Source: Rhina ancylostomus (Eukaryota). Taken from it: a stretch of 64,000 nt of DNA. The position numbers and the translations under genes were made by a program. Each line of letters opens with the position of its first letter. Within the stretch, counting starts at the first letter, position 1. Under the pieces are notes generated by a model. It worked only from the letters and a program-made list of their open reading frames with translations, did not search any database and was not told the DNA's origin. Location: NCBI GenBank assembly GCA_030265395.1, contig JARFYF010000036.1:21065555-21129554 (forward strand). Direction: 5' to 3'. Positions 3,311 through 58,400 of the stretch are shown here, one piece after another.

Positions 3311-4066
3311 GGTGAGAGAGGGAGATGGATATGGGGCTGGGTGGTGGAGGGTGACCTGAACAGGTGAAGGCTTGACTATCAATGATACTATAGTTAAGTT
3401 CAATGATGTATATAAGTCCAGAATTAGAGGAGAGCACATATCCCAGAGGGTTATGGTTGAGAAGGAAGTTATCGAGATGGGGAGGAATGAGACCATGGAA
3501 GAATGTAAAATCAAACTTAAGAATTTTAAAATTCAGCTATTGCTTAACGACAATACAGGATGGTTCAGCAAGCTCAGTCGCATCCCAAATAGGTGATTGG
3601 GCTAATGGAAGTTTAGACATGGACAACAGAGTCTTTGATGACATCAATTTTATATTTCAATGCTGGTTCTGAGTTATTAGCTGTTCCAATCAGGGTGGCC
3701 AGTGTGGTCTGTGTTAAAATTGGCAGATCTGGAGGGAACACAAGCATGAATGAGGGTTTCAACTACAAACGTTTCCCCAGTAGAGTTATCCAATACCAAT
3801 GGACTTAGTTTCAGAATATAGGATTACCTACTTCAGATAAAGATGAGGAGGAAATTCTTCACTGAGGATGTTGAATCTTTAGAATTCTTTACCTCAGAGA
3901 GTTATTTAATATTTTAAACTACAATGACGTTGAAGGAATATGCAGAAAGAGTTAAAAAAAAGACATATCGAAGCCAAGATTAGATCAACCTTCATCTTAT
4001 TGAACGATGAAGGAGGCTGAAGGGACCAATCAGCTTTTAGCTGCTGTTTCTTACGATCTTATGCCA

Positions 4067-4140
4067 GGCAGCATCTGTGAAGAGAGAAACAGAACTGAAG
4101 GATCATTGACCTGAAACATTAACTCTGTTACTCTCGCCAT
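4067..4140. mobile_element. Penelope-type fold-back remnant with degenerate hammerhead-like motif
   Basis: gagagaaacaga ... tctgttactctc arms around ctgaaggatcattgacctgaaacatt. Confidence 0.5.
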
Positions 4141-10445: not shown

Positions 10446-13400
10446 CTGAAAAACACCATAAAACAAGGTTGAAATGATATTGGAATATGAAAAGCCTCGA
10501 CAATTGTTTTCCACTTTAAATACAGTAGGTCTTGATGGTGTTGTGATACACCAAATAAAAATGAACCAAAAGAGGGTTTTTGTTTGAGTGTGGAAAGATC
10601 TTTTCTGTTGGGACAGAAGGATTTCATAGGCTTCCCTCACTCTGAGAGGCTTGAATGCCCAATTCTAAATTTAAATATAGACGAGATGAATAAGGAAGTA
10701 TGACAAACACAAAAAAATGAGGACAGAGATTCCTGGAATATTCTTAATTCCCCTTGTATGTCTTTGTAGTCCATTTCTAATGTGCTTAAATTAAAACATA
10801 GGGTAAGAAATTTGCCACAATTGACAGTGAGGCTGTCTTGCAAGTTGTTCATGCTAGTCCCAGGTGAGAGGGATACTTGGTTTCAGGCTGCATTTAAAAA
10901 GAGCCATGAAAATCTATCAGCCAAGCCTGCTGTTGGGTGAAGATGCATTTTAATGCTCAACAACAGCTTAACGAGTCTTTGTTTCCTCCTCCATTTTATT
11001 TTTTCTTATACAAAACTTTTGTTTACTGACACTGGTATCCTCTCTTGGCCCATCTGAAATGGAGCCTGGAGTTGGATTAGCACCATTTCTAAAACACTCA
11101 GAACAAGCTTGTACTTGGCAATGAAAATCAACTTACAGCTATACTTCCACAGATGCCAGATTCCTGGGTTTTTACCCAAATAATGATACCAAATATGATA
11201 CTTAACAGTGGGCATCAGTGTTAAGTCAGCAATAGTGGCAATAATCCTTTTCCAGGCTCACAAACCATAACACAAATTTGGATTGGTCCATGGGCCAGAA
11301 CTGAGATGAGTGTGCACATTGAGTAGTCTACCCCAAGATGGCAAACTAATTCTCTGGGTTACAGGATGCCCATTTAAACTTGAAATGGATGTAATAAGTG
11401 ACTCAGGCAGGCAATGTGGATGCTTAGTGAAAAATGAGTGGTAAGTCATTCAATGTCACCTTTGGGTCACTTGTAGATCAAACAGTGCTTCATGAGAGCA
11501 CCCAACATTTACTTCAACATTAAAGACCCCAATAAATAGAAAAATCACTGCAAAATTCTACTAACTAAAGGCAGGTAATTAAAAAAAAATTACCTGATTC
11601 TCAACAGTGATCCATCTGAGGACCATTTTTGGGCCACTGTGGGCCCACTGAAACAGGGAGCGGTTTGCTCACTCTGGACTTGGAGTCCTAAAACAAGGTT
11701 TTAACTTTTATTCACATTTTTGGATTCTGCGTTACTACTCATCCTGAATTTCCCTTAAAAGGGTGAATGATGAGCTACCTTCTTGAACTGCTGCAGTCCT
11801 TCTACGAAGGTACCCCCCACCGTGCTGTTGGGGAAGCTGTTCCAGAATTTTGACCCAGTGACAATGAATACCAACAGTGTATTTCCAAGTCGGGACTTGG
11901 AGGAGAACATGCAGGCAGTGACATTACCATGCACCTGCTGCCCTTGTCCTTACTGGTGGATGTTCTGTGTTTGGGAAGTGCTGCTGCAGTAGTCCAGGGT
12001 TGTGTTGAGGTACAGATGGTACATGCTACAGCCACTGTGCACTGGTGGTGGGGTACTGAATGTCTAGGGTGGTGGATAGGATGCAAATCAAGTGGCTTAT
12101 TTGGTCCTGGATGGTGACAAACTTCTTGTGTGCTGCTGGAGCTGCACTTATTTAAGCAAGTATTCTATCATAGCCCTGATTTGTGCTTTGAATTTAGTGA
12201 AAAACAAGGAAAGTCTTCCGCCTTACAATAGGCTAACCAGTGTCCAAACTTCTCCAGTAGTCACAGTATTTATGTGGCTGAGTCAATGGTAACCCATGCA
12301 AATTGTCGATGGTGGGAACTCAACAGAATGATGCTATGAATGTCAAGGGTAGGTTGTCAGAATCTCTCTTGTTGGAGATGGACACTGGCACTTCTGTGAA
12401 GCAAACGTTATTTGTGACTTATTAGCCTGAGCCTGAACATTGTCTAAGTCTTCCCACGTGCAGGCACGGGCAACTTCATTATTGACGGATTGAACATTGC
12501 GCAATCATCAGGGAACAGCCCCACTTCGGAATTATGATGAAATGACAGTCATTGATGAAGAAGCTGAAAGTCATTGGGCCAGGGAGACTTCCCTGAGGAA
12601 CTTCTGAAGTGATGCTTGGGGCAGCGGTAGTTGACTTCCAACAACCACAACCATTTTCCTTTGTGCAAGGTACAACTCCAACCACTGGAATGTTTTCCCT
12701 TGAACCTCACTCTTCAGTTTTAGCAGGGTTCCTTTCTCAAATGCTTTCATGGAGTCACTGTTACGTCACCTCTGGAATTTAGCTCTTGAATCCCTATGTA
12801 GTCAAAGGCTGTGACAGGGTCAGGAGCTGAGTGGTCCTGGCAAGAGGCAAACTAGGCATTGATGACCAAGTTATTGATGAGTAAATAACACTTGATATCA
12901 ATGACATCTTCCATCCCCTTGCTGACGATTAAGGATGGTAATTAGTCAGATTGGACGTCTTGCATTTTGAGGATTGATGTACTTGGGCAATTTTCTATGT
13001 CGTTGGGTAGATGCCAGTGTTGTAACTGTACTGGAACAGCTTGTTAGGGGTGTAGGCACAAGAAAATGCAGATGCTGAAATCTGGAGCAACAAACAAAGT
13101 GCTGGAGAAACCCAATGGGTCAGGCAACATCTGTGGAGAGAAATGGACAGCCGACATCTTCGGCTGAGACCCTTGTCCATTTCCCTGCATAGATACTGCC
13201 TGACTTGCTGAGTTCCTCCAGCATTTAATTTGTTCTCAGAGATGTATCTAGTTCTAGACTGTAAGTCTTCAATACTCTGTTGGGATGTTGCCTGGTTCCA
13301 TGTCCTTAGTACTCACATACAGGGCCCTGAATTGTTGGGAACATGATTGTACCCCACCAGCAATGTGTCCTTCCTCCCATTACCAGTTTGATCATCCATC

Positions 13401-16400
13401 ACCGTTTATAAGGAGATGTAGCTAGACGGCTGAGCTTTGATCTGATCTGTGACTATGTGAATTGCGTACTGTTTTTGATATTGTCTTGTGTTGCGGCTTC
13501 ACCAGATCAGCACCTCATTTTTAGATATGCTTGGTGTAGCTCCCAGAATGCCCTTCTGCTCTCCTTATTGGACCAGGCTTAATACCAATGACGGAGTGAG
13601 GGATACACCAGGCCATGAGTGACGGATTGTAACAGCATACATATCTGCTACTCCTGCTGCTGTTGGTATTCTGTGCTCTGTGCTCTGTGGATACCCAACT
13701 TTAAGTTTCCAGGTCTGCTCTGTGCCTATCCCTTTTAGCATGGTTGTAATGCCACAGTTATTATGACGGGTGGCTTCAGTGTGATGAAGAAACCCCCTAG
13801 TCACCACAAGGCCTGTGTCAATTTTATCAAACGGATGCATCAGCCATAACTGCTTCTTTCCAATGTTCCTCAACATGAGGGAGCAATGGTGCAGCTGAGG
13901 AAGAAGAATAATTGGTAATCAGACGGAGGTTGCCCTACTACCACAAGGTGTCATAGGGACTGGAGTCATTGTTGAGCATGCTCAGGTCCTGTATATCAAC
14001 AGTACCACTCCTGTTGGTGAGTCAGTTCTCACCGTGGGCTGGGATGTAACCAAGGCAAGATCAGAAATGTTTGAAGAACTCAGCCAGTCAAGCAGCATCT
14101 GTTGAAAGGGAAACCAATCCTCTGAGGAAGGGTCACTAACCCAAAACATGGACTGGTTTCTCTTTCCAAAGATGCCATTTTGATTGACTGAGTTATTCCA
14201 GCATGTCTCCGTACATTTTGGATTACAGCAAATGTAGTTTTGTTTTCCTGGATGTATTCGGAGATTATGAAGAAATCTGGTGCTTTGTCATTATGGCATG
14301 TCCATGAACACAATTATGTCAGGCCATTGTTTGACTGACAGGCTTGTGGGACATGTTCCACCAGTCCCAGATATTCATGTGAAGGATTTTACTAGGTCAA
14401 CTGGGCTGGGGAGTGACTCTGTCCTGTCCGAGTTCATTGCCTTGGTCATTCTGGTTTTACTTCAATGTAACAGTTATGGTTTGTTGGGTCTGAGGACAGT
14501 CTGGATTGGGTAATGATAGCTGATTTCCTCCCTGGAGGGTATGATTAATACAAACCAGTGGTTTTGTGGTCATCACTACAAATACCCATGCTATTAACAA
14601 TATTCCAGATAGCCGACAGAGTGGGAATTTGAATTTGACTCTCTGGCCTGTTAGTCTAATTTTAACCACTGTGCCACTGCTGTACACCCAGCAGGGTCCA
14701 CTGATAACCACAATGAAAGGGTATTTTGCTTGTTTTGGACAGTCACCCTAGTTTCCAGCTATCAATTTGGCAGAGATCATGCTTGGAAACCAGGCATAAA
14801 GTTATTAATCATTCCAGATAAAATGTTCACAATACCTTAAAAATAACAAAAATAGTCAAGCAACAGTAACAATGATAGGATAATAAATGAAGAACATGAA
14901 GGAAGGTTAGTAAAGGTTGCCACACTAATATCATTTCAAATAAAAACCAAACTCACAAACGTTATAAATGCATGCAGTGTTTTAGCAGGCTAATCCAGCA
15001 GAAGAGAAATAAAGAATGGTTTGAGTTCTCCTTCACTGAGAAATCAATGCTGATGAAAAGAAAAGACAGTGGTTAGGATTTTGGAGTCATAAAACGAAAC
15101 AGTTACCACACATTCCATAAAATGCAAATTTGTTTTTGTTTTCAAAACAATTCCCAATTCTTTAAAAGTCTTGCATTATTCATTATGCATTTTGCTACAA
15201 GTTAATCAAACCAGGCATCAAGGTATTCCAGAGGCCTTCCACATGCTTTACGTAAACTCTACCTCAGTAATATGGTCAAATGTGTGTTAAAATGGATGGA
15301 AGGATAGGCTTCTGGAATGGTGATAATAATGCCAAAGCAAGAAAACAAATGATATTGTGGGTTTAAATGGTTCTGATCCAGCAATTATATCCAGCGTTCC
15401 TGTGTTTTGGGGAGTTTACTGGCCCTCGTGGGTGGCTGGAACTTCTTTTGATTGTTTCATTCTAGACATTTACAGCAGAACCAACTCTGACTGGGCATTT
15501 CCCCAGGTTTCACTGCATGATTTCTTCCTCCTGCTGATTCATCCAACCAGCCTTTCTTTCCTTCATCCCCAGTATCTTAATTGGAACCTTGTATTTGTAT
15601 AAAACACAATGTTTATACAAATTGGTGTGCTCATAGAAGGTGAAAAAAAATTCCTTTNNNNNNNNNNNNNNNNNNNNNNNNNNNNNNNNNNNNNNNNNNN
15701 NNNNNNNNNNNNNNNNNNNNNNNNNNNNNNNNNNNNNNNNNNNNNNNNNNNNNNNNNNNNNNNNNNNNNNNNNNNNNNNNNNNNNNNNNNNNNNNNNNNN
15801 NNNNNNNNNNNNNNNNNNNNNNNNNNNNNNNNNNNNNNNNNNNNNNNNNNNNNNNNNNNNNNNNNNNNNNNNNNNNNNNNNNNNNNNNNNNNNNNNNNNN
15901 NNNNNNNNNNNNNNNNNNNNNNNNNNNNNNNNNNNNNNNNNNNNNNNNNNNNNNNNNNNNNNNNNNNNNNNNNNNNNNNNNNNNNNNNNNNNNNNNNNNN
16001 NNNNNNNNNNNNNNNNNNNNNNNNNNNNNNNNNNNNNNNNNNNNNNNNNNNNNNNNNNNNNNNNNNNNNNNNNNNNNNNNNNNNNNNNNNNNNNNNNNNN
16101 NNNNNNNNNNNNNNNNNNNNNNNNNNCAGCAGCGACATCATGATTCAAAGGGTCTGGACCTGTGCGGTACTGTTCTATGATGAATCTTAAATCATAGAAA
16201 CCAAAAATACAAACTTTATCACCAATACTACCAGCCTATATTCACCAAGTAATGATAATCACTACTTCCTACACTCAGTCCTACAGAATTCCTCTTCCCA
16301 ATTCTCACAGATCCATTGTAGTATGGTTAAACAGCATATCAGAATGTAAAAACATCGTAGGTCCTTTATTGTCCCATAAAAGTTAGACTTGGTTAGGCTC

Positions 16401-19400
16401 AATGGCACAAGTAAGGAATAAACAATCCACTGCACTGATATCTTAAAGATAATTCTCCTTATCAGAGATCACAGCATTATACTAGTCTTTGTAGCAACTC
16501 TATGATAATTAAGGGACTGAGTTGGGCCACATAAACCAATACAGATGGATACTTGGCTGACAAATTTGCAGCCAATAGTACATATCATGATTTCTCGGAT
16601 ACACCGGTTTAGGATGATGGATCTGTTCACAGGATAGAAAGTGGGGGATGCCTTAAGAAGACAGCATCCATCACTAAGGACCCTAACTATCCAGGTCACG
16701 TCCTCATCTCGTTCCTACCATCAGGGAGGAGATACAGGAGCCTGATGACCCACTGTCAATGATTCAGAAACAGCTTCTTCCCCTCCATCATTCCATGAGC
16801 TACCTTGTTATTCCTTTTTTTTGCACTATTTATTTATTTTGTCATTTATTGTAATTTTATGTCTTTGCACTGTACTGCTGCCATAAAACAACAAATATCA
16901 GGTTATCCAAGTCAGTGATAATAAATCTGATTCTGATTTTTAAAAAATGTGAAAAAGAGACAATGGATCTCTCCTGAGATAAATAGCCTCTGTTTTGTTT
17001 CCAAGGCAATTCATCTCTGCAGGGAGAGCTGACAAGTCTGTTGGAAGGAGATCAACAATCTACTGGAGGAACTCAGTGAGTTGAACAGCATCTGTGGGGG
17101 GGAAAGGAATTTTTGATGCTTCAGGTTGAGTACACACACTCTAGAAATACCCTTCTGACACTAAGTTGTTGGAGTCCTTCCCAGGACTTCTAATAAATCA
17201 TTTTCGTCTTTGACAAAGCACCCCTAACCTCTCCACACTTTCTCCTCCAGCTCTTCTTACTCACCACTACCCCCCTTGGTAGAAGAAAGCCAGGAACTCT
17301 TATTTCCAAGTTACAGCCAAGATACAGGCCTTCCTGGTGGATGCCTGCTAAGGTTACAGAAAGAGTGTGCTGAAACATCCAATGAAATGTTCTCTTTCTC
17401 ATTTCTGATAAAGGGACTTCAGCCTGAAAAGTTGACTGTTTCTCCTTCCACGATAAGTTCAGACGTGCTGAGATTTTCCAGCATATTCTGATTTTGCTTC
17501 AGATTTCCAGATTCTTTTTTTAGCTTTCATGGAGTTTTAGGACCTGAGTTGTTTTGTATGTTTCCATGAGTTTCATTCTCTTCTTTGTTTATTCAATTAT
17601 TGGTAACTGATAACTAGTTATTGATTATAGGGTGGTGGTTTTCTTATTTGTTTTGCATATTTATATGTTCCCTACCTATTAAGATGTAGATTTGTTGTTT
17701 TGCAAATAAAATAACTGAGCAAATGAAATGTTAGTGCAATGCTTCACCTGTGTCAATATCAAGTTTATCAGATGCTGAGGCAAATACAAGACTTTATTTA
17801 AGTGGATAAATAGAAATCATGTGTGAGTAACTGTTTCTTTGAGGTAAGCTCTCAAAGTGCACATTATATAGGAAGCCTTTTGCAGACATGCTATTGTGAT
17901 GTAATATCGAGAAACAGTTGTGTAAGTGCTTAGGCTTTGCATGCAAGAAACAGCAAGCGACTTGCTGCAGCTGCAGAGTTGTAGATGAATCTATTGAAGC
18001 AGTTCTCACACAACTCACAGGGACTTGGAGTTTGGTCTCTTCGTTTTAGGCCATTTCCGACGCTGATATTGCCTGGTGTTTAAGCAGCAAAGACAAAAAC
18101 AAAAGCTTAGCATCTTGAAACACAAACTGAAAAGGAGAACATTCATGGAAGTAATAATGAGTGCATCATTTTGATGCAAGCTCAACTCATGGATGAAAAA
18201 GTATAAAGAGAAACATGCCAAAAATTGGATGCTATACATACTTACTGATATCAGTCTGTATCTACAGTCTTATTCTAACATATCATCCCAGTTTGACAGT
18301 TCCATGCATAAAGAATGTGTGTGGCTCATTTCAACAGAGAGATAAAGGAAAGCAATATTCTGATGAAAGGTCATTGACCTGAAACACTATTTCTCACTGC
18401 AGAAATGCTATCTGATTTGCTGATTATTTCCAGCACTTTCTGTTTTTACTCTAGAGTGCTCTTGCCTTATTAGAGGAATGGCATTCTCCTGAACTTCCAA
18501 ATGTAAACACATAAATATCACTCAGTTAAATGAAATACTCAATTCTTTCTCAACATAGATACAATAAATCTGTCATTTCCTAATTATATACCCACAATAA
18601 ATTAGAATTATTAATAAAAATCTTGATAAAGAATAAAGTGGGTTTCATTGTGTTAATTGATATCCTGCCGATGCATGGAAACAATGTTAAATTAAATGGT
18701 TACCTGTATTGATCAAACTTTTCTTCATCTTTTTCTCCTAAACAACAAAAAAGTCTTGCAATCAATTAAGCGATCATCAATAGTACTCGAATTTAAAGAA
18801 TTCAGTTTGTATTTCTAAAGAATGATTATTGTGCAACCAAACAGAATAGAGAATAGTATTAGAATGAGCTTGAATTTTCTCGCACACTTTCGGTTCTAGG
18901 TCCAAATTGAATGACCAGCTGCTCCAACCTATACTAGTGTCTTCACTGAAAGAGTGCAGAGATATATAACACATGGCTTAGCCCCTGGGCTGGCCTATAC
19001 CCTGTAAAAGTCAATATTAATGACATACCGGAAATGAACTTTGAGGTTTGTTAAGCCATAACAGTCAACCATAAATTTTAAAAAGGCATTAATTTCTGAA
19101 TGAGCTGCATTATTAAGTTAACAGCTCCCTGAAGTAATTACCCTGATTAATCTAATATTTTTTATTGAACTATTAATCAGCCACCTATAGTGGTCCATAA
19201 ATTATAGACATAACAAACTTTTCACTTGCTCACATGTAAAAATAAATAATTTTAATATTAAAAATTATGACATTTGACAGTTAACTTTCATACATGTATC
19301 ATTCTCCATAACAATTATGGCATTTGTACCTGTGTCCATATTTCTGGTCCGTGGGTTACACTTCTTAAAACCACGACAGGTTCGTAATTCCATTAGCTGC

Positions 19401-40400: not shown

Positions 40401-43400
40401 CTGAAAACTAAGAGGATATGAATCCTGGATTTTTTTTTCTTAAGAATTCTGATAGCAACTGAAACTTGTGTTTCACAGGATAATGGAATTGATTCAGTGA
40501 GGGACATAGGAAATGGTGAATTAATTGTGACTAAAATAAAGTAATTTGAAATAAAAACAGAAAATACTGGAAACACGCATCTGTGGAAGGAGAAACAGAA
40601 TTAACGTTTCAGGTCCAAGACCCTTTGTTACAAGTAATTTGGTTTTGATTGCTTCCAGTAAAGATGTAGATAAATCCACATAGGTAGGACTAAACTATAT
40701 AAAGAAAATTACAATTCTGTAATCTGAAAACCACCTTGATTGGTGACTGACAATGAGTTTATTGCTTCAGTTGAAGGTTTATGCACAAGAAAAGATGGCA
40801 AATATGGAATGGAAAGTAAATTCTTGCCGCGAATGCAAATAGAAAATCAATTATTATTGGCTTAATATATCTTAAATATTCACAAATGAAAGCAATGCTA
40901 GAAATTCCAGTATTAATAATTAACTACTGTGCTTCATTTCAATGAAATTCAGGCCTAAGAGGCTTATCAATATTGAAGGAAAAATCTTTAACAACAGATC
41001 AGACAAACTGTATTGGTGAAGAATACATAATATGTGCTTGATAATAAGACCATAAGACTAGGAGCAGAATTAGGCCATTTGGCCTATCAAGTCACTCCAC
41101 CATTCAATTATGGCTGATTTATTATTCCCTTTCAACCCAATTCTCCTGCCTTTTCCCTGTAACCTTTGATGCCCTTACTAATCAAGAACATGTCAACGTC
41201 CTCTTTAAATATACCCAATGACTTGGCCTCCACACCTGTCTTTGGCAATGAATTCCACAGAGTCACCACACTCTGGCTAAAGAAATTCCTCTTCACTTCT
41301 GTTCTAAAGGGACATCTTTCTATTCTGAACCTGTGTCCTCTGATCTTGGACTCTCCCACTCCTGGAAGCATCCTGTCGACGTCAACTCTATCCAGGCCTT
41401 TCAATATCCAGTAGTTTCAATGAGATCCCCCCTCATCCTTCTAAACTCCAGCGAGTACAGGCCCAGAGCCATCAAACACTCCTCATACGTTAACCTTTCA
41501 CCCCCGGGATCATTCTCGTAAACCTCCTCTGGACCCGCTCCAACACCAGCACATCCTTCCTTCGATATTGGGCCCAAATCTGCTCACAATACTCCAAACG
41601 TGGTCTGGCCAACGCCTTATAAAGCCTCAGCATTCCATCCTTGCTTTTATATTCTAGCCCTCTGGAAATGAATGCTAACATTGCATTTGCCTTCCTTCCT
41701 ACCGACTCAACCTGCAAGTTAACCTTTAGGGAATCCTGCACTGGGACTCCCAAGTTCCTTTGCACCTCCGATTTCTGAGTTCACTCTCCGATGCCAGTGC
41801 AGAGACCTCGTTGTCAGGGTACTGTGTGAGCTGGAACTGTTTCAGGNNNNNNNNNNNNNNNNNNNNNNNNNNNNNNNNNNNNNNNNNNNNNNNNNNNNNN
41901 NNNNNNNNNNNNNNNNNNNNNNNNNNNNNNNNNNNNNNNNNNNNNNGGGGCCCAAAACTGCTCACAATACTCCATCTGTGGTCTGACCAATGCCTAATAA
42001 ACCCTCAGCATTACATCCTTGCTTTTATATTCTAGTCCTCTCAAAATGAATGCTAACATTGCATTTGCTTTTCTTACTACCGACTCAACCTGCAAGCTAA
42101 CCTTCAGGGAATCTTGCACTAGAACTCCTAAGTCCCTTTGCACCTCTGATTTCTGAATTTGCTCCTAGTTTAGACAATAGTCTATGCCTTTATTCCTTCT
42201 ACCAAAGTGTATGACCATACGCTTCCCTGCGCTGTATTCCATCTGCCACTTTTTTATCCATTCTACCAATCTGTCCAAGTCCTTCTTCAGACTCTGTGCT
42301 TCCTCAGCACAAGCTGCCCCTGCACCTATCTTTGTATCATCCACAAACATAGCCACAAAGCCATCAAATCTGTCATCTAGATCATTAACATAAAGCATGA
42401 AAAGTTGCAGACCCAGCACCGACCTCTGCAGAACACTACTAGTCACCAGCAGCCAACCAGAAAAGGCCCACTTTATTCCCATTCTTTGCCTTCTGCCAGT
42501 AGGCCAATCTAGTACCTTTTCTGTAATACCATGGGTTCCCATCTTATTTTGCAGTCTCATGTGCAGCACCTTGTCAAAGGCCTTCTGAAAATCCAAGTAA
42601 CCAACATCCACTGGCTCTCCTTTGTCTATCCTGCCTGTTAATTCCTCAAAGAATTCCAACAGATTTGTCAGGCAAGATGTCCCCTTAAGGAAACCATGCT
42701 GACTTCAGCCTATTTTATCATGAGCTTCCAAGTACCCTGAAACCTCATTCTTAATAATAGACTCTAACATCTTACCAACCACTGAAGTCAGGCTAACTGG
42801 CCTATAATTTCCTGTCTTTTGCCTCTTTCCTTCTTAAAGAATGGAGTGACAGCTGCTATTTTCCAGTCCTCTGGAACCATTACTGAATGTAGTGATTCTT
42901 GAAAGATCAGTACTAATGCCTCAGCAATCTCTTCAGCTACCTCTTTCAGAACCCTGGGGTGCAGTCCATCTGGTCCAGGTGACTTATCCACTTTCAGACC
43001 TTTCAACTTTCCAAGCACTTTCTCATTAGTAATAGCAACTACACTCACTTATGCCCCCTGACTCTCGAATTTCTGGCATGATGCTGGTATCTTCCACAGT
43101 GAAGACTGATGCACAATACCTATTCAGTTCGTCCGCTATTTCTTTGTTCCCCATTACTACCTCTTCAGCGTAATTTTCCAGCAGTCCGATGTCCACTCTT
43201 GCTTCTCTTTTACTCTTTATATATCTGAAAAACCTTTCGGTAACCTCTTTTATATTATTAGCTAACTTGCCTTCATATTTCATCTTTTCTCCTCATATTG
43301 CTTTTTTAACTGCCTTCTGTTGGTTTTTGAAAGCTTCCCATTAATTTCTGCAATATTGTATGCCCTCTTACTTTTATGCTGTCTTTGACTTCCCTTGTCA

Positions 43401-46400
43401 GTCACAGTTGCCTCACCCTGCCTTTAGAATGCTGCTGCTTCTTTGGGATGAACTGATCCTACTTCTTCTGAATTACTCCTAGAAACTCCTGCCATTGCTT
43501 CTCTATCATCATCTCTGCTGTATTCCTCTTCCAGTCAGCTTTGGCCAACTGCTCTCTCATGCCTCTGGAGTTACCTTTACTCAACTGTAATACCAATACA
43601 TCTGATTTTGGCTTCTCCCTCTCAAACCGTAAGATGAATTCCATCATATTATGATCACTGCCTCCATAAAGTTCCTTTACTTTAAGCTCCCTGATCAAAC
43701 ATGTTTCATTGCACAAAACCAAATCCAGAATTGCCTTTTCTCTAGTGGGTTCAACCACAAGCTGCTCTAAAAAGCCATCCCGAAGGCACTCTACAAATTT
43801 CTTTTCTTGGGTTCCAGTACCAACCTGGTTTTCCCAATCTTCCTGCATAGTGAAATCCCCCATGACCACTGTAACATTGCCCTTTTTACATTTTTCTATC
43901 TTCTGTTGTAATTTGTACCCCACATCCCGGCTACTATTCAGAGGCCTGTATATAACTCCCAACTGGGTCTTTTTACCCTTGCAGTTTCGAACAAGGATTT
44001 TATATCTTCTGATCCTACGTCACTTCTTTCTAAGGATTTGATTTCATTTTCTTACCAACAGAGCCACCCCACCCACCTGCCTGTCTTTTCATAAATATTT
44101 GGGATGCTGGTTCAAGAGAGGCAGAAACTGAGCATGTGAGTACACCACTGAGAGAAGCTTTCAGAATAGATGTCCGGAGGCTGTCATAGAGTTACATGGC
44201 ACTTCGACCCAACTCATCCATGTTGACCAAGTTGCCTACCTGAACTAGTCCCATTTGCCTGTGTTAGGCCCATATCCCTCTGAACCTTTTCTATCCATGT
44301 ACACAGGATCATCCATGAACACTGAGGCAGGCACAAGGGGCTTCAAAGCTTTGTGTTCATTATACAAAATAATTGCAAAACTGATATACATTTGAGACTT
44401 GTATTAATGGATTAAAGAGAGGGGAGAAAGGTGGGGAATGTAGGATTTGAAGAAGGAAACAGCAGAACCCAGATCCTAGACAACTAAAATGGGGTCACAA
44501 AGCAGAAAGTGGTCTTAATGGATGAGGTGACCTCCAATAAGATTTTGAATTTCTCCATAGTTTCCAATAATCATGTGCTGAAGATCAGAAAGGGATCAGC
44601 AGAAGTCCAGGTAATCGCCTCCACATCAGTTACAAAGAATTTTGCATGTTAAAGATGAAGGTGATGATTGCAGGTAATGGAGGGAATCGGTAGTGAAGGG
44701 AAACCAACTGATAGTTTTGCTTTCCAAGCTGATTGTAGATTAATCAGCAGTTTAAATAGAGGAAGGACATGATATAGGCCCAGTCTTGAATTTTGCAAAG
44801 TTAAAATAGTTGTGCACCAGAATTGCCATTTTTTCAGATCTTTTCTTTGGCTAGTTTCAGGATTACTCTAAAATCTCTGCTGCAAAAGGCCTTGGAAACT
44901 TTGGTCAGTAATTAGTTCTGGAAATGTTCCTGTAATGCCATTGTACTTTCATGGGTAAGCCTCACCTCTGTGTGCAGACAGAGTTCCACTGTACCTCCAG
45001 TGACGTTACTATCACTGATAGGGCAGGAGAGTTTATAATGCATTTCCTGACCTTTACCTTGCTGTGAAACTTGCCTGAAATTAGAATTTGTGGTACAGCT
45101 TTTATACTCTGAAACTTAACTGGCCTCTAACAGAAATATATTGACCTTTTTTTTCTTATGTCTCTGAGTTACCGTTCCTTACTTACATTGTCATTGTCAA
45201 TTAATGCTACTCATATTCCTTCTATCACATAGCACCCAAACTGCACAGAGTGAAATTGTTCCACTGAATATATAGATAAAATTCAGAAGCCATAATTATG
45301 GCCCACTGTGTAAATTGTCAGCAATGGATGCTTATAATAAGTTTCACAAAGATGGTGAAAATGCTGAATAGTCTCTGCTGTGGTATTTGGGCTCCTTGCC
45401 TTCATGATCTGTCTCTCCCCCAGCCTACCCTCCTTTCCTTCGGAGTGATCAGCCTAATTCAAGTGATCTACCATGAAGCCTCCATTATAGCAAGCAGCTT
45501 TGCTAGCCCTGTTTAATTGAGGCACAAACCTTGATATCCTTAATAAGAGCTGGTACACCTCAAGTTGCCTTTCATTCAGCCAAAGGATAAAATATACTGA
45601 GTCTATTAATAATAATAGTAATTTATGAATTTAAATAAACTTATGCCTAATGTTATACTTACATGTGCATATACAATGGATTGTGAATTATAAATTATTC
45701 TTTGCAACAACACAGAATGTTCAAATTGTGCTTAAAAACTTTTACAAAGGAATGGTTGACAATTTGACACTGAAAATATAGAAAAGAGAAAAAATGGTTG
45801 TGTTTTTACCATTTGAAGAGGGTTTTTAGCATATTGCAACTCAGAGATTTTAGTGATTTTTATATCTGCTGTATCTTAAGCTGACAGGTCTGAAGAATTC
45901 TTATTTTGGATTCACGATAAGCATTTATTGTGCAAATCTTCCTCGTGCATTTAAAGAGCAATCAATAGTTCTTCAAATGTATTGATTCTGCCTGTACATA
46001 AGTACTCTTGCTTTGAGTTATACAGAATGGGCAGGTTTGTCTTGCAGTCTGCACTGAATCATCTGGTCTTGATGGAACAGTATGCAGGTAAAATACTGCC
46101 AGAACATTGATCCTTGACGATAACAAAAACAGCTATGAACAAAGCCAACAGAGATTCAATAATTCCTGCTTTAAAGGTCAGAATATCAGAAGGTCAGCAG
46201 TGTGGATGTTCAGTGATGATTGCACAATGTTCAATTCTATTTGCAAAGCCTTGCAAATGAAGCACTTGTCACTTGCATGCAGCAAGACCTGGGAAACATT
46301 GAGGCATGGGCTTATAAATGCCAAGTAACATTNNNNNNNNNNNNNNNNNNNNNNNNNNNNNNNNNNNNNNNNNNNNNNNNNNNNNNNNNNNNNNNNNNNN

Positions 46401-52400: not shown

Positions 52401-55400
52401 CTACTTCTCAGGTTGTGTAGTGGGAACTTCCGGATGTGCCAGAATGACTTTTGGTTTCCTGCTTTATCTGCCCAAGCGCATCATCTACAAATCATTACTT
52501 TCTCAGTACTACAATGAAACATTTGTTAGCTGAGATCACATATCTAAAACAATCTCTGAATAATGTGTAGGTCTAACTATTTAATAAGATCTTACATTGA
52601 TCCTGGCTCCACATTTGGTCCCCGCATAAAAAATGGCACTCGAATGTCAAACTCGTATGGCATGGATTTTCCTTTCACAAGGCCAAACTGTCCAATGTGA
52701 TAGCCATGATCTGCTGTGTAAATGATGTAGGTGTTGTCCACTTCACCCAATTCAACAAGCATATTATAGAGCTGAAACATCAATTAAACTCATTTTTGGT
52801 GAAAGTAATAATGCATCATTTAACCTCCTCAACATTTCTAGGTACTGCTAACAAAGAATCAGGCCATTCATTTTTGATTACTGTTCAAATAAAACTATTT
52901 TTTTTTCAAAATGTTAATACATTTCAATTGTACTGCTTTGGCTTGCATTAATAATGTGGGCCTGGGAAGTAGCAATCTCTCTGTGTTGGTAACTTGCTCA
53001 AATTACTCACCATAGTAGTAATGAGAAGCCCCTTTGTATTTACATATCTCATGCTCTGGTAAGCAGTGTCCCGGGTATCCATACCACTATCTGTTCCTGT
53101 ACATTTGCAGATCTCTCTCTCTCTCTTACTTCCTAACCCTGGTATAATGCCAGTTTCTGTGCTGGCACGAGAATGAAGCTAAGGCAATCATAATCAGATT
53201 GAGGGTGGTTTGCATCACCAGCATAAGCACTGCATGAGTAAGTTCTCTACTGTGGTTATGTGGGAGATTTGCTTTTTATTAGGGCTCTAACTTATCTGCT
53301 CTGGAATGATTCTCTGCAGATGACTTAGAATAGTCCAGAATAATTCACCCTCTGGCTTCCTTTCTCTATTTGCATTTCCCCAGTGACATGAATCTGACTG
53401 TAAAATCAGTGGTTTAAGGTTAAAATTACATTGCACTGCTATGCAACAGTACATTAGTAGATCCTGCAGTTTGAGAATTTTGTCTGGATTATAATCACAG
53501 AACTGAATAAAAATATTTTATTATAAAATCTTCATTTTCTTGCTAAGGGTTATATTGAAGTGAAAAACAATATGTGTCATGGAGAAAGCTGCCACATATT
53601 TCTGGCAGATCTGAATAAAATCTCAAGTAAAATGATTAATTTATTTAAATCTGATTGATCTGTTACACACATGGTCAGAGTCAGATTTTCACCTGAACAA
53701 CTCAGCTGTCATATTCATTAAATTGCAACATATCTCAGTCTGAGTCAGGGAACCCAATCAAACATTAACAAAGAAGTTACAGTTTCATCAGATCTTAATC
53801 ATGAGCTATACGTTAATATGCTCGTACAAAGGATCCTCACTGCAACATCAATTAGCTTTTAAGTGATTTCAAGATGTGCCTATTTACAACAATTAGATCC
53901 AAATGTTTTATAAGAGACAGGATGGTCTTGAAATAATTTGATGCCTGGAAAGGCAGTGAGTTGTAGGAGTATTTCTTTTATGGTGACCTACTGTAAAATT
54001 ATACGGCACACAAGGCCCAAGGTTTTGTGTGATAAAGATCAGGTCTTGCATGAAAGCCATTTCCTCCATATGCTCCAGAGGAAATGTTGCAAGCCTGGTT
54101 CATAGTTCATGTGGAGAAAGGTCCAGGAGGAAGAAGGTGAGGATGGTGATTGAGTTTGAGTCGGTAGGAGTTACTACCAGAATGGGAAACGTGAGATGGG
54201 TGAATTGTGAGGAGCCATTGTGAGGGGGTAAACTGTTAATGTGCATTTACCTGAAGCAAATTCCTGGACTGAACTCCACAACCTGGACCTACACAGACAA
54301 GTCCTGTTTAGTTCCCCTGATGTAGCCCCTACATGTGCTTCCATTTTCTTTTCTTTTTTAATATTTTTATTAATTTCAAGTAAGAAGTACAAAATGCATG
54401 AAACAGAGGAAAAAAAATTACAAAATAGATTATATTGAANNNNNNNNNNNNNNNNNNNNNNNNNNNNNNNNNNNNNNNNNNNNNNNNNNNNNNNNNNNNN
54501 NNNNNNNNNNNNNNNNNNNNNNNNNNNNNNNNNNNNNNNTTTGAAAGTTCAAAATAGATCCAGAAATAGAGCAATGGATCTTCTCTAAATTTAGATATGA
54601 TGTAACATCCCGTAACCATTGAGTATGAGTGGGAGGAATAGTTTCCATCCATTTAAGCAATACAGCTCTTCTGGCTATATGAGAAATGAAGGCCAATATG
54701 TGTAAGTCAGAAGTCTCCAAAATTATATCTTTTTCTCCAACAATCTCAAATAATATATTTAAAGGATTTGGCTGTGCTTCTATTTTAATAGCCCGCTGAG
54801 TGTATAGGCCATACATGAGTGCATGGAAATAATGAAAGCACCCTCCAAATGTGAATTACATGTTGCTGGGTTTCACTGCATTTGTTAGAGTGGTGCATTA
54901 GTACATAAGAGCCACAGAGAACCTGGATCCCAATCCACAGAGTAAATCCACGATATACATTAACAAAATGTTTTTCATAGAAATGTGATCACCAAGTGAA
55001 CATAAATGTTGTGCTATGCAATGGAATTTCTATGCCAGCAAGTTTTAAGCATTTCCATCAGAGAAACCAAATAATTTGCTGTGTATTATTTAGAATAGTG
55101 CTTGTAGTCATAGGAAATTAAGTTCACCACAATCCCTTGGGAGATCTATGAATAACAATTCAAAATGCACTTAAGGTAATAATTTACTATTAAAAATATA
55201 TTTTTAGCTTTAAAATCAGCCAAAGGTTTTTACTGCAACTTGTGTTATCTTAATTCTATGTATTATTTCATGCTATGTTTTATTTTCAGGCAAGAAGATT
55301 GCTTTTCCCTCCTATATCTTGAGATTCCCCTTTTCCTATCTTCAGTCCTGAAGAAGGGTCCCAACCCGAAATGTTGACTGTCTGCTTTTCTCCACAGATG

Positions 55401-58400
55401 CTGAGTTCCTCCAGCATCAAAGTATTTTTCATCTACATTTCAGCATCAACAGTCCTTTGTTTCTCAAGAAGATTCTGAATATGCTTGTTGAAGTATTATT
55501 TCACAGCTGCCTTTGCTGTCTATACAATTTGTAAATAAAAGCCAAAGGTTAAGCATAATGGCAGGGCAGTTGGGTGTGCTCAGCAAGCGATGTGTATAAA
55601 AGCTCTTGATTATCACAATGACCTGGAATCATATCGAGTGGCTCACTGCCTGTACTTGCCATTCACCTATCCACCAAGCCTGTTCTCACCTTGAGTTGGT
55701 CCTCACAATAGTGGGCTCTTTTTCTGAAATGGCCAGGACCTGCACAGTGCAGGATTTTCTGATTTTGCATGATATATTACTTCAATTGATTTTTTTTTAA
55801 ATACCTGTGTGGTCAAAAATTTCCATTTTGTTTTGTATTATTGCATTTCTAATGGTACTTGAAACTCACCTTTTCAATTGATTCATCCACGGACATCAAA
55901 GTCTGCAGTCTCTTCCTCTGTAACATGTTTGTGAACTCCATGTGAATGGGTTTCATTGGGCCAGTGTACCTCATGATCCAATGCTTGTCTGGATTGGGAG
56001 CATAATTATAGCTGGGGGTGCTGCAGGTGTGATTATAAAAGTATATTAATCATATAGGTTTTCACAGATTAGATATATAGATAGATCTCTTTGCATTGAT
56101 CCCTGCACATTCACTTTCAATATCAGGGTAATTCCATATATAGATTTGTTTCTCCATTGTCTCTGTGCACAAAACGATTGGAATTTGCTCCCCATCACAA
56201 TCCTTTATTCCAGCAGGTACTACTACATGGGTGAGAAGTTGTAAGCTGATAGCTTTGTATGAGGGTCCTCAGCACTGATATTCTATCTTGTTCCTGTGGA
56301 GAAGTGGAGGGTGGGAACGCAGGGTGAAGTCAGTCATTGGTTGTGGGGATATTGGTCAAGGAGTCAGTCAGGAAGTTGATGAGACAGGGAAAGGGTGAAG
56401 GTTGGGGGATGGTCAATGAGGATGGAGCAGGGGAGAGGATCGGGACTACATCTGGCAGCTCTCTGTTTATTCTGCCAATGCTTCCATGTCCTTCTGCATT
56501 ATCTTGCAATTTTTTACAGTTTGCCATGGCACCTAATTTAGTGTCATCAGAAAATTTGTGCTTATGCCTAAATCATTTATATAAATAGAAAATAACAGAT
56601 GTCCCAGCTCAGAACCTTATGTGGCATCGCAATTCGCATGCTGCCAACTCAAAAACATTAACTTGCTCCTGCCTTGTTTTCTCACAATCATCCTATCCCA
56701 CTCTTTATATTTGCTTCAATAGCATGTGCCTTAATCTATCAATGCCTTTTGTGAGACTTCTATAAATTCAGATTTTCACTGGCAACTGAATCATCTTTGC
56801 TTTTTGCCTGCAGCTGCCAATCCATGCAGTGTGTCACTGTTTAACTTGTACATTTCGAAGTGTTCATAAATTTTATCCTACATATTTAGAGTAGAGGTGG
56901 AGCATCAACCAATGATGATACTAGAGCATGAGCTGGATTTGGGATTCCAGGAGTTGAGAGGTATCTCCCTACAGGTGGGAGCACTATGCTCCAGGAGCAT
57001 CAACGGATATGCTCCTCGGCCAGGATGCATCTGCAAGATTTGCAACACATCCACTATTTAAATTATTCCCCAGTTCCTCTGGCATCATCATTCTTCAGCC
57101 AATTAACATGGTGGCAGGGGGCACAGAGAATAGGGAGAGTGGAAACTATTGAAATGCTGTCAAAATAACTGCCCATCTGCTTCATTCACACCTTGAGGAC
57201 GGAACTAAAATCAGGTTACAAATTTATCAGTAATTTTGTCGTTTATCTGTTATTTTTGACTCTATCTCTTTGGATTACTTGCATTTGCATGCAGCCACTT
57301 TTCTCATAGATGTGGGGCGGATGTAAACTTGAATACAGATATGGAAAGATGGCAAGATAGAATTTGGAAATATTCAGGTATCTACTCAAATTTGATAAAG
57401 AATAATTAGATTTAGAAGGGTATTGTGGAATAGTAAGTTAAATACACAGAGATTAACGTGCAGAAAGTTAAATATAATGAGTGAGGTAATGAAATAACTC
57501 ATGACATTGATGAAGAGAAATAGATATTGATAGGGATATCTTCTAACATACCGATTGGGAGATAGACTCTGTAACTGTATCTGACTAGGGAGTGCTTCAT
57601 TCTGATGATTGATATTTGTGAGTATATGTATTTGTGTAACATTCAGTGATGGATAAAGAAATGACCATTCACAGTTTAGAATATAACGGGAGTACAAATC
57701 ATTAGACACATCTATCTGACAGCTTATTAAAAATTAACTCTTGTTTCTGAAACATAATAAAGCAACATCAATTCTTCTCTTTGGAATACTGAAGGATATT
57801 AAAAAAGCCATTCTCCAAAACAAAACCCTTATAAAGGTTACTAAAACTTTGAATAAATAGGAAAGTAAGAGAACGTACAAGAACATTCAAAGTGAGAAAA
57901 AAAGTTCACCTATCAATTCATTATCCAATGTCAATATTAGATTATTTCATCATTGAAACCCTTCCAAATTCATTGCTGATTTGAAAACAACCAACAACGC
58001 ATTTCCTGATGAAAATCAGCTATATTCAACTTCTGTTACTCTCAAACATTATACAGGTCCTCCACAGCTGACGAACGCCGGACTGATGTACAGCCCGTAC
58101 ATACGATCGAACATTTGGGAGACCAGTGGTATGGATTTGCCAGCTGCTGCAGTGCTATAGGCATCTTCTGTAACTTGGTTCGTGGCCATTCTTCTGACGT
58201 GCAAACTGTCCGGGTCATGAACAGTTCACAGGAATGGAATCCTGCTGTAACCTGGGGAAGACCTGTACTTAAACACATCGATAAAACTTCTCTTAAATGT
58301 ATCAACTCCTCGCTTTATTCCAAATGTTCACTATCCTGCAAGGGTAGAAGGAAGAATAATTTCTTATCTTTCTTTAGGTTATAAATTTTGCAGTGTTTTT

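Follow-up and report, generated by a model that had tools for sequence, protein, structure and literature searches.

Penelope-like retroelements were already known to carry minimal hammerhead ribozymes (PMC4209133), as the original prediction for the locus studied here had stated, and the role of these ribozymes is described as unsettled (PMC8557442, PMC11167929). As reported for the published minimal motifs, monomers do not cut and dimers cut weakly (PMC4209133), while the motif of a lizard element is described as cutting only with protein, with the uncut RNA as the substrate for insertion (PMC11167929). The reading frame of that element, Poseidon, begins within its ribozyme (PMC11167929). 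A TATA box and an initiator in the pLTR were noted earlier in a rotifer element (PMC3846280), and a TATA-less internal promoter is described for Drosophila Penelope (PMC2377424). A 2026 preprint describes retrozymes from a single chondrichthyan and records Neptune and Poseidon from five classes of vertebrates. The examined text of PMC4209133 names no cartilaginous fish and its searched supplement no shark or skate, and literature searches for hammerhead and Penelope returned a single review with an unrelated mention when combined with shark, and nothing when combined with cartilaginous.

Here we describe a motif of this kind in a 64,000-nt stretch of the Rhina ancylostomus genome (hereafter, the window). 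We conclude with high confidence that it is a minimal hammerhead belonging to an abundant Penelope-like retroelement, whose end repeat was left here as a 165-nt truncated, target-site-duplicated insertion antisense to SULF2, in a copy that is likely inert.

The hammerhead motif and the retroelement family that carries it

The motif and the insertion around it comprise the following features.

55343..55380, plus strand: minimal type I hammerhead motif, from sequence parse and folding
55343-55347 with 55376-55380, plus strand: helix I
55348-55354, plus strand: CUGAAGA
55355, plus strand: bulged A
55356-55359 with 55364-55367, plus strand: helix II
55368-55371, plus strand: GAAA
55371-55374, plus strand: decayed palindrome
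55301..55465 (165 nt), plus strand: subfamily A copy of the end repeat of a Penelope-like retroelement, truncated at its 5' end and comprising pLTR and tail
55292..55300: left target-site duplication, 9 bp, or 10 bp if C55291 is counted
55466..55474: right target-site duplication
55313..55318, plus strand: TATA-like box located 31 nt before the initiator A; its last base differs from the family form
55342..55348, plus strand: initiator-like motif that overlaps helix I on its 5' strand, with A55344 as the predicted transcription start
55397..55418, plus strand: 7-bp hairpin downstream of the ribozyme, found in all three subfamilies
55433..55465, plus strand: optional tail of about 30 nt, retained in this copy

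The motif parses exactly as first proposed, coordinates and strand included: helix I (CAGUC/GACUG) is followed by CUGAAGA, a single unpaired A, helix II as GGGU(CCCA)ACCC, and GAAA-UG-U-U. Both core boxes (CUGANGA and GAAA) stand in type I order with every core base kept, in agreement with the intact core originally described, and the G10.1-C11.1 pair is present (G55356-C55367), with A55355 as the unpaired base between 9 and 10.1. In standard hammerhead numbering, the cut is predicted after U55375 of a GUU triplet, i.e., between 55375 and 55376. When folded alone, the 38-nt motif forms only helices I and II (-10.2 kcal/mol, z -1.95; 11 of 200 shuffles fold equally well), a fold that exceeds chance only modestly. 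A chance origin is instead ruled out by the family evidence, since a 34-nt intact-motif pattern has 620 exact matches in the genome against 0 for the reversed control, and a core-plus-ACGT pattern has 5,192 against 71, which also bears out the suggestion of a large ribozyme-bearing family in this genome. A 28-nt tail pattern identifies 5,144 copies, and all such copy counts are lower bounds because 32 of 100 copies run into assembly gaps. The Rfam scan proposed as a check returned no hammerhead, whether at the gathering threshold across the window or at E ≤ 10 across 55000-55700, as would be expected for minimal motifs without helix III.

Within the window, a profile search gave 10 matches at E ≤ 0.015 including 55301-55465, and none below E 0.1 in the reversed window. 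Five of the others cover part of the ribozyme (starting at 13178 minus, 14122 plus, 17399 plus, 18360 plus, and 40626 minus) and four are tail-only inverted pieces; the related copies are arranged as follows.

13060..13228: related copy without CUGA (13178-13060, minus strand) and inverted tail piece (13180-13228)
14066..14238: related copy (14122-14238, plus strand), G12 and palindrome changed, and inverted tail piece
17057..17511: related copy (17399-17511, plus strand), G8 changed, and tail piece (17099-17057, minus strand)
18360..18457, plus strand: related copy with both core boxes, without helix I or palindrome
40577..40626, minus strand: related copy truncated before CUGA
4061..4139: weak related copy (4095, plus strand, E 0.77) and inverted tail piece (4091, minus strand, E 0.015)

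The earlier count of at least seven related copies thus holds, but these are mostly older subfamilies that are unfit as intact partners: none of the nine other matches at this threshold keeps the core plus both helices, and the nearest same-strand copy (18360..18457) lies 37 kb away. The motif is a single unit, with no tandem array in the window and no Penelope protein remnant there. At 13060-13228, 14066-14238, and 4061-4139, a ribozyme-bearing piece stands head to head with an inverted tail piece, giving three pairs in the layout usual for such elements.

Across the genome, the end repeat yielded 2,467 first-look candidates, the best 40 of which were scored and, apart from the repeat itself, were 82-90% identical to it. 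Three subfamilies were distinguished among 83 motifs: A, which includes 55301-55465 and has N7=A and N17=U; B, with N7=U, N17 mostly C, and five pairs in helix I; and C, with a longer loop and U2.1-A1.1. The original prediction of a minimal type I hammerhead belonging to a Penelope-like element is supported by linkage in both directions. A GIY-YIG C-terminus lies upstream on the same strand in 7 of the 29 closest copies and, reciprocally, 21 of 30 loci fetched by the GIY-YIG protein are followed on the same strand, 119-683 nt downstream, by the repeat (20 of 29 once the query's own locus is excluded, with short contigs accounting for 3 of the 9 misses); 5 of these 30 have an inverted copy of the repeat upstream. 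In one locus (L066, 1455-2645), RT motifs, a CX4CxxC linker, and CxxC within the GIY-YIG core share a single 397-aa frame that is followed by the repeat, and a DKG motif occurs in another (L067). Judged by this linker motif, the family would be a Penelope-like element of the Neptune or Nematis type (PMC8557442). The proposed connection of the motif to a Penelope RT/GIY-YIG frame is therefore found, but in no full-length copy: 14 longer loci, all truncated or gapped, contain no full-length element and no direct pLTR upstream of the frame.

In domain searches, Pfam matches to the element protein fall below curated cut-offs (RVT_1 E 0.049 and 0.0011; GIY-YIG E 0.036), and RVT_1 and GIY-YIG are present in 12-23% of members of the nearest Atlas clusters (0.95). 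Pfam searches with four decayed frames (L018/L025) and three others (L067/L072) were blank or irrelevant, and a PDB sequence search with the element protein gave nothing meaningful. Remnants of the protein occurred within 1.5 kb of only 4 of 51 motif-anchored loci, many of these 51 being gapped. Family copies mostly end at one of two 3' positions, about 30 nt apart (20 short, 17 long, and 2 between among 39 copies; 51 short, 47 long, and 2 unreadable in a second sample of 100), and 5' truncation, inverted adjacent copies, an optional tail, and short target-site duplications are all present. Two further arrangements were observed: a subfamily A stub seemingly inserted in the RT frame of another Penelope-like copy (L016), and a 39-nt tandem duplication containing the 5' half of the ribozyme region (L018:1584-1680, minus strand).

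We next consider whether the motif is catalytic at the family level. Helix covariation, set as a test in the original prediction, proved weak: the score of 0.214 compares with 0.207±0.011, and 135 of 500 shuffles scored as high (82 rows; 2 of 83 motifs omitted for length). Changes on both sides of a helix numbered 31 against 18 expected in shuffles (4 of 500), and these rest on one or two between-subfamily events. One clear compensatory change converts the helix I 2.1-1.1 pair from C-G to U-A in 13 copies of subfamily C, and a second, from G-C to A-U in 8 copies, is partly explained by CpG decay. The hammerhead assignment accordingly derives from the match to the published descriptor and from location, and not from covariation. 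These observations bear on the strongest alternative, in which the family motif is hammerhead-like by descent and non-catalytic even in its consensus, with an A-C in helix I, U at position 17, and an upstream hairpin able to pair with the core. Only three helix I pairs are firm across the family, a core-sequestering hairpin is predicted in subfamily A (subfamilies B and C are without it), and copy 5' ends show no excess at the cut site. Against this stand the subfamily C exchange, the core boxes as the majority state in 31 copies picked by protein rather than by motif, and the lizard motif, described as active only with protein (PMC11167929). We regard a non-catalytic family as unlikely, though as an alternative to be taken seriously, and it is compatible with our main reading of 55343-55380.

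Decay of the kind seen across the family probably also accounts for what distinguishes this copy. Divergence in protein-anchored copies is 8.3% at non-CpG and 32% at CpG positions; the palindrome tetramer reads ATGT in 8, ACGT in 6, ACAT in 4, and otherwise in 5 of 23 such copies, and at position 1.4, which lies in a CpG, 18 of 28 have C and 10 have T. Given these counts, CpG decay is the likely cause both of the disrupted palindrome of 55343-55380 and of its perfect helix I. The proposed decay from ACGT to ATGT thus agrees with the family, while the perfect helix I is real as five pairs in this copy but corresponds to an A-C in the family, and comparison of the copies suggests that the extra pair is likely an accident of decay.

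Where copies of the family begin

Among 100 tail-anchored copies, 32 ran into gaps, 17 extended at least 100 nt, 14 had internal indels, and 37 had true 5' ends. Family sequence crosses the cut site in 64 of the 100, in line with unprocessed RNA as the insertion substrate, as described for the lizard element (PMC11167929). A cleavage footprint, i.e., 5' ends at the cut site, was sought and rejected, as only 2 of the 37 true ends lie within 2 nt of it, and 11 matches genome-wide, with no excess. Six of the true ends fall at -33 to -31 relative to the cut site. Matches to junction patterns genome-wide numbered 13 at -39 to -37, 246 at -33 to -31, 104 at -30, 48 at -27 to -25, and 11 at the cut site, or 87, 1622, 2343, 214, and 149 after a rough per-position normalisation that assumes random flanks and in which the -30 class includes internal deletions and microhomology. 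Copies therefore pile up at the first bases of the ribozyme, about 8-27-fold over neighbouring positions, and 5' ends at -34 to -28 also occur in 10 of 27 motif-selected copies of subfamily B. An inverted copy adjoins at least 9 of 30 such junctions, and a strict exact test found no target-site duplication of 8 bp or more in 30 short copies. Separately, 8 of the 37 true 5' ends form a second truncation cluster at +21 to +28, at the foot of the 7-bp hairpin (55397-55418).

The peak falls on an initiator-like TCAGTCC whose A lies 31 nt below the TATA-like box; the initiator consensus is YYANWYY. We tentatively suggest, at somewhat less than even odds, that the peak marks the 5' end of the RNA and thus the transcription start of the element. 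Nuclease cutting in a hairpin loop is a possible alternative source of these ends. A splice junction, with an acceptor formed by a pyrimidine tract and CAG ending at -31, is disfavoured, as the flanks share no common upstream exon and the A at -32 is kept in 18 of 30 copies. The short copies may then represent a fossil map of the element RNA, which would start from a TATA-initiator promoter at the first bases of the hammerhead, begin with the ribozyme, be primed internally 100-130 nt downstream, and be written into DNA uncut; this broader reading falls a little short of being the favoured one. If true, it would account for the great number of ribozyme-sized stubs in the genomes of sharks and rays, and any role of the ribozyme would then lie outside production of the template for insertion.

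The same pile-up is pertinent to a different proposal, in which the short copies form a separate non-autonomous family (SINE- or retrozyme-like) mobilised in trans from its own promoter; 47 of 51 motif-anchored copies lack nearby protein remnants, which would also be expected of such a family. However, internal priming on the full element RNA, followed by copying of its 5' end, would also produce such a pile-up; apart from this peak, 5' ends spread continuously into the frame, no tandem units occur in the window, and 55301-55465 itself starts 43 nt upstream of the initiator. We consider a separate family very improbable. Overall, the genome-wide counts point to copies made from uncut RNA, with copying that often ended at the first bases of the ribozyme.

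The truncated insertion antisense to SULF2

The full Sulf-2 protein maps to 15 stretches of the window from 62006 to 18018, every one on the minus strand, and the exon at 55873-56019 matches several Sulf-2 proteins of rays and skates at 100% identity. An Atlas search with a SULF2 exon gave no usable match, and a PDB sequence search with it nothing meaningful. Two exons delimit the host intron.

55870..56020, minus strand: SULF2 exon preceding the host intron, whose donor is at 55869
52595..52771, minus strand: SULF2 exon downstream of the host intron, from protein mapping

The motif does lie in a SULF2 intron (55869-52772), about 490 nt from the splice donor, as originally reported, but it is antisense to the gene, a point of strand that had been missed. 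With SULF2 on the minus and the motif on the plus strand, only the complement of the motif is present in the pre-mRNA, which thus contains no ribozyme; no CUGANGA...GAAA match occurs on the pre-mRNA strand of this intron, and cleavage of the host transcript in cis is therefore ruled out. Elsewhere along the gene we observed an intron shorter than 100 nt between two exons (47996-47920, minus strand), a 90-aa open frame that is not SULF2 by Sulf-2 protein mapping and has no Pfam match (58045-58314, minus strand), and a fragmented LINE-type element in a SULF2 intron (41135-44019, minus strand) with Exo_endo_phos_2 (E 1.6e-7) and RVT_1 (E 2e-9) frames. A second SULF-family gene with DUF3740 exons, presumably the SULF1 paralogue, lies at G000:C119:40649526-40650520.

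The edges of the insertion are defined by its target-site duplication, for which a shared 10-mer arose by chance in 10 of 3000 random flank pairs, and are corroborated by loose ends at 55300 and 55465 in contigs of related organisms. The insertion is common to the same site in two related organisms, with flanks about 1-5% diverged and no contig spanning the motif, and it therefore predates their split. The copy is about 8% decayed and carries a 12-nt internal deletion near 55398, between short direct repeats, that is also present in 3 of the 29 closest copies. We infer that the element protein nicked the SULF2 intron and started reverse transcription at the tail of uncut element RNA. Since 55301-55465 reaches 43 nt upstream of the predicted start, it was likely copied from the downstream (read-through) repeat.

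In an active element, cutting after U17 would follow the pairing of two motifs through their ACGU palindromes, possibly aided by protein. The palindromic 15.2-16.2 of the family is absent at 55343-55380, which has AUGU, and the corresponding 4-bp helix III duplex is predicted at +2.6 kcal/mol, against -1.7 for ACGU, which upholds the view that this copy is weakened. In folding, the probability of helix I drops from 0.99 to 0.10-0.43 once native flanks are added, because an upstream UCUUCAG can pair with the core. With an AUGU palindrome, no intact same-strand partner near, and a host transcript of the wrong strand, these predictions suggest that the copy is likely inert. Some activity or constraint may nonetheless persist, given the core bases all kept, a helix I above that of the family, and an insertion present in two organisms. 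A hairpin switch, in which the core would be sequestered in read-through RNA and free in RNA from the start site, was also considered and rejected, as the hammerhead fold was favoured in one of five natural copies in both contexts.

The most elaborate form of retained function would be an exapted antisense unit, with the TATA box and initiator of this copy driving a transcript antisense to SULF2. This RNA would have the hammerhead at its start and would be cleaved in trans-dimers formed with RNAs of other copies. The initiator, its spacing, and the core bases are intact, helix I is improved, and the insertion is shared at the same site across flanks diverged by about 1-5%. Yet the last base of the TATA-like box and the palindrome are changed, the AUGU duplex is unfavourable, and helix I is not predicted to form in RNA from the predicted start. 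Nor does an intact core require selection, since 7 of 23 protein-anchored copies of the same age keep the whole core. An exapted unit is thus slightly less probable still than a separate non-autonomous family. A domesticated intronic ribozyme acting on SULF2 pre-mRNA, like amniote RECK-type hammerheads, has an intronic position about 490 nt from the splice donor in its favour and can be practically dismissed for a member of a dispersed repeat that is on the wrong strand and lacks helix III. For SULF2, the motif is most likely irrelevant, being decayed and on the wrong strand.

Comparison with known systems

For Penelope biology, the family provides a large natural data set, together with a putative transcription start that can be tested and a motif that could be put through cleavage assays. 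It resembles the minimal hammerheads of metazoan Penelope-like elements (Cervera and De la Pena 2014, PMC4209133), as described there, in being type I with no helix III stem, an unpaired base between 9 and 10.1, a palindromic 15.2-16.2 (in the family), G10.1-C11.1, a short helix I, a terminal-repeat location, and thousands of dispersed single copies. Helix II differs, with 7-8 bp in Schistosoma versus 4 bp at 55343-55380, and the palindrome is kept in the published motifs but lost in this copy (PMC4209133). As reported for EN+ elements of the Neptune or Nematis type (Craig et al. 2021, PMC8557442), a C-terminal GIY-YIG follows the RT, with a CX2-5CxxC linker and a DKG motif, and copies show 5' truncation, inverted adjacent copies, and an optional tail, of 30-40 bp in those elements.

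Poseidon of Anolis (Frangieh et al. 2024, PMC11167929) is described as inserting uncut RNA, with no ends at the cut site, as here. Its two reverse-transcription starts lie about 85-92 nt below the cut site, compared with about 70 and 100 nt in the Rhina family, and it is described as lacking the zinc-finger linker that the Rhina family has (PMC11167929). Pen2a of Adineta vaga (Arkhipova et al. 2013, PMC3846280) likewise combines a pLTR bearing a putative TATA box and initiator-like motif with a 9-bp target-site duplication, a 31-bp optional tail, and an inverted pLTR; the account of Pen2a reports no pile-up of copy 5' ends at the initiator, unlike the pile-up in the Rhina family. Amniote intronic hammerheads of the RECK type share a vertebrate intron and a retroelement origin, but are described as conserved, canonical, and thought to act on host RNA (PMC6155905), whereas 55343-55380 is part of a minimal, decayed repeat copy in antisense orientation. 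Finally, non-LTR retrozymes are tandem arrays of at least two hammerhead units, whereas 55343-55380 is a single unit.
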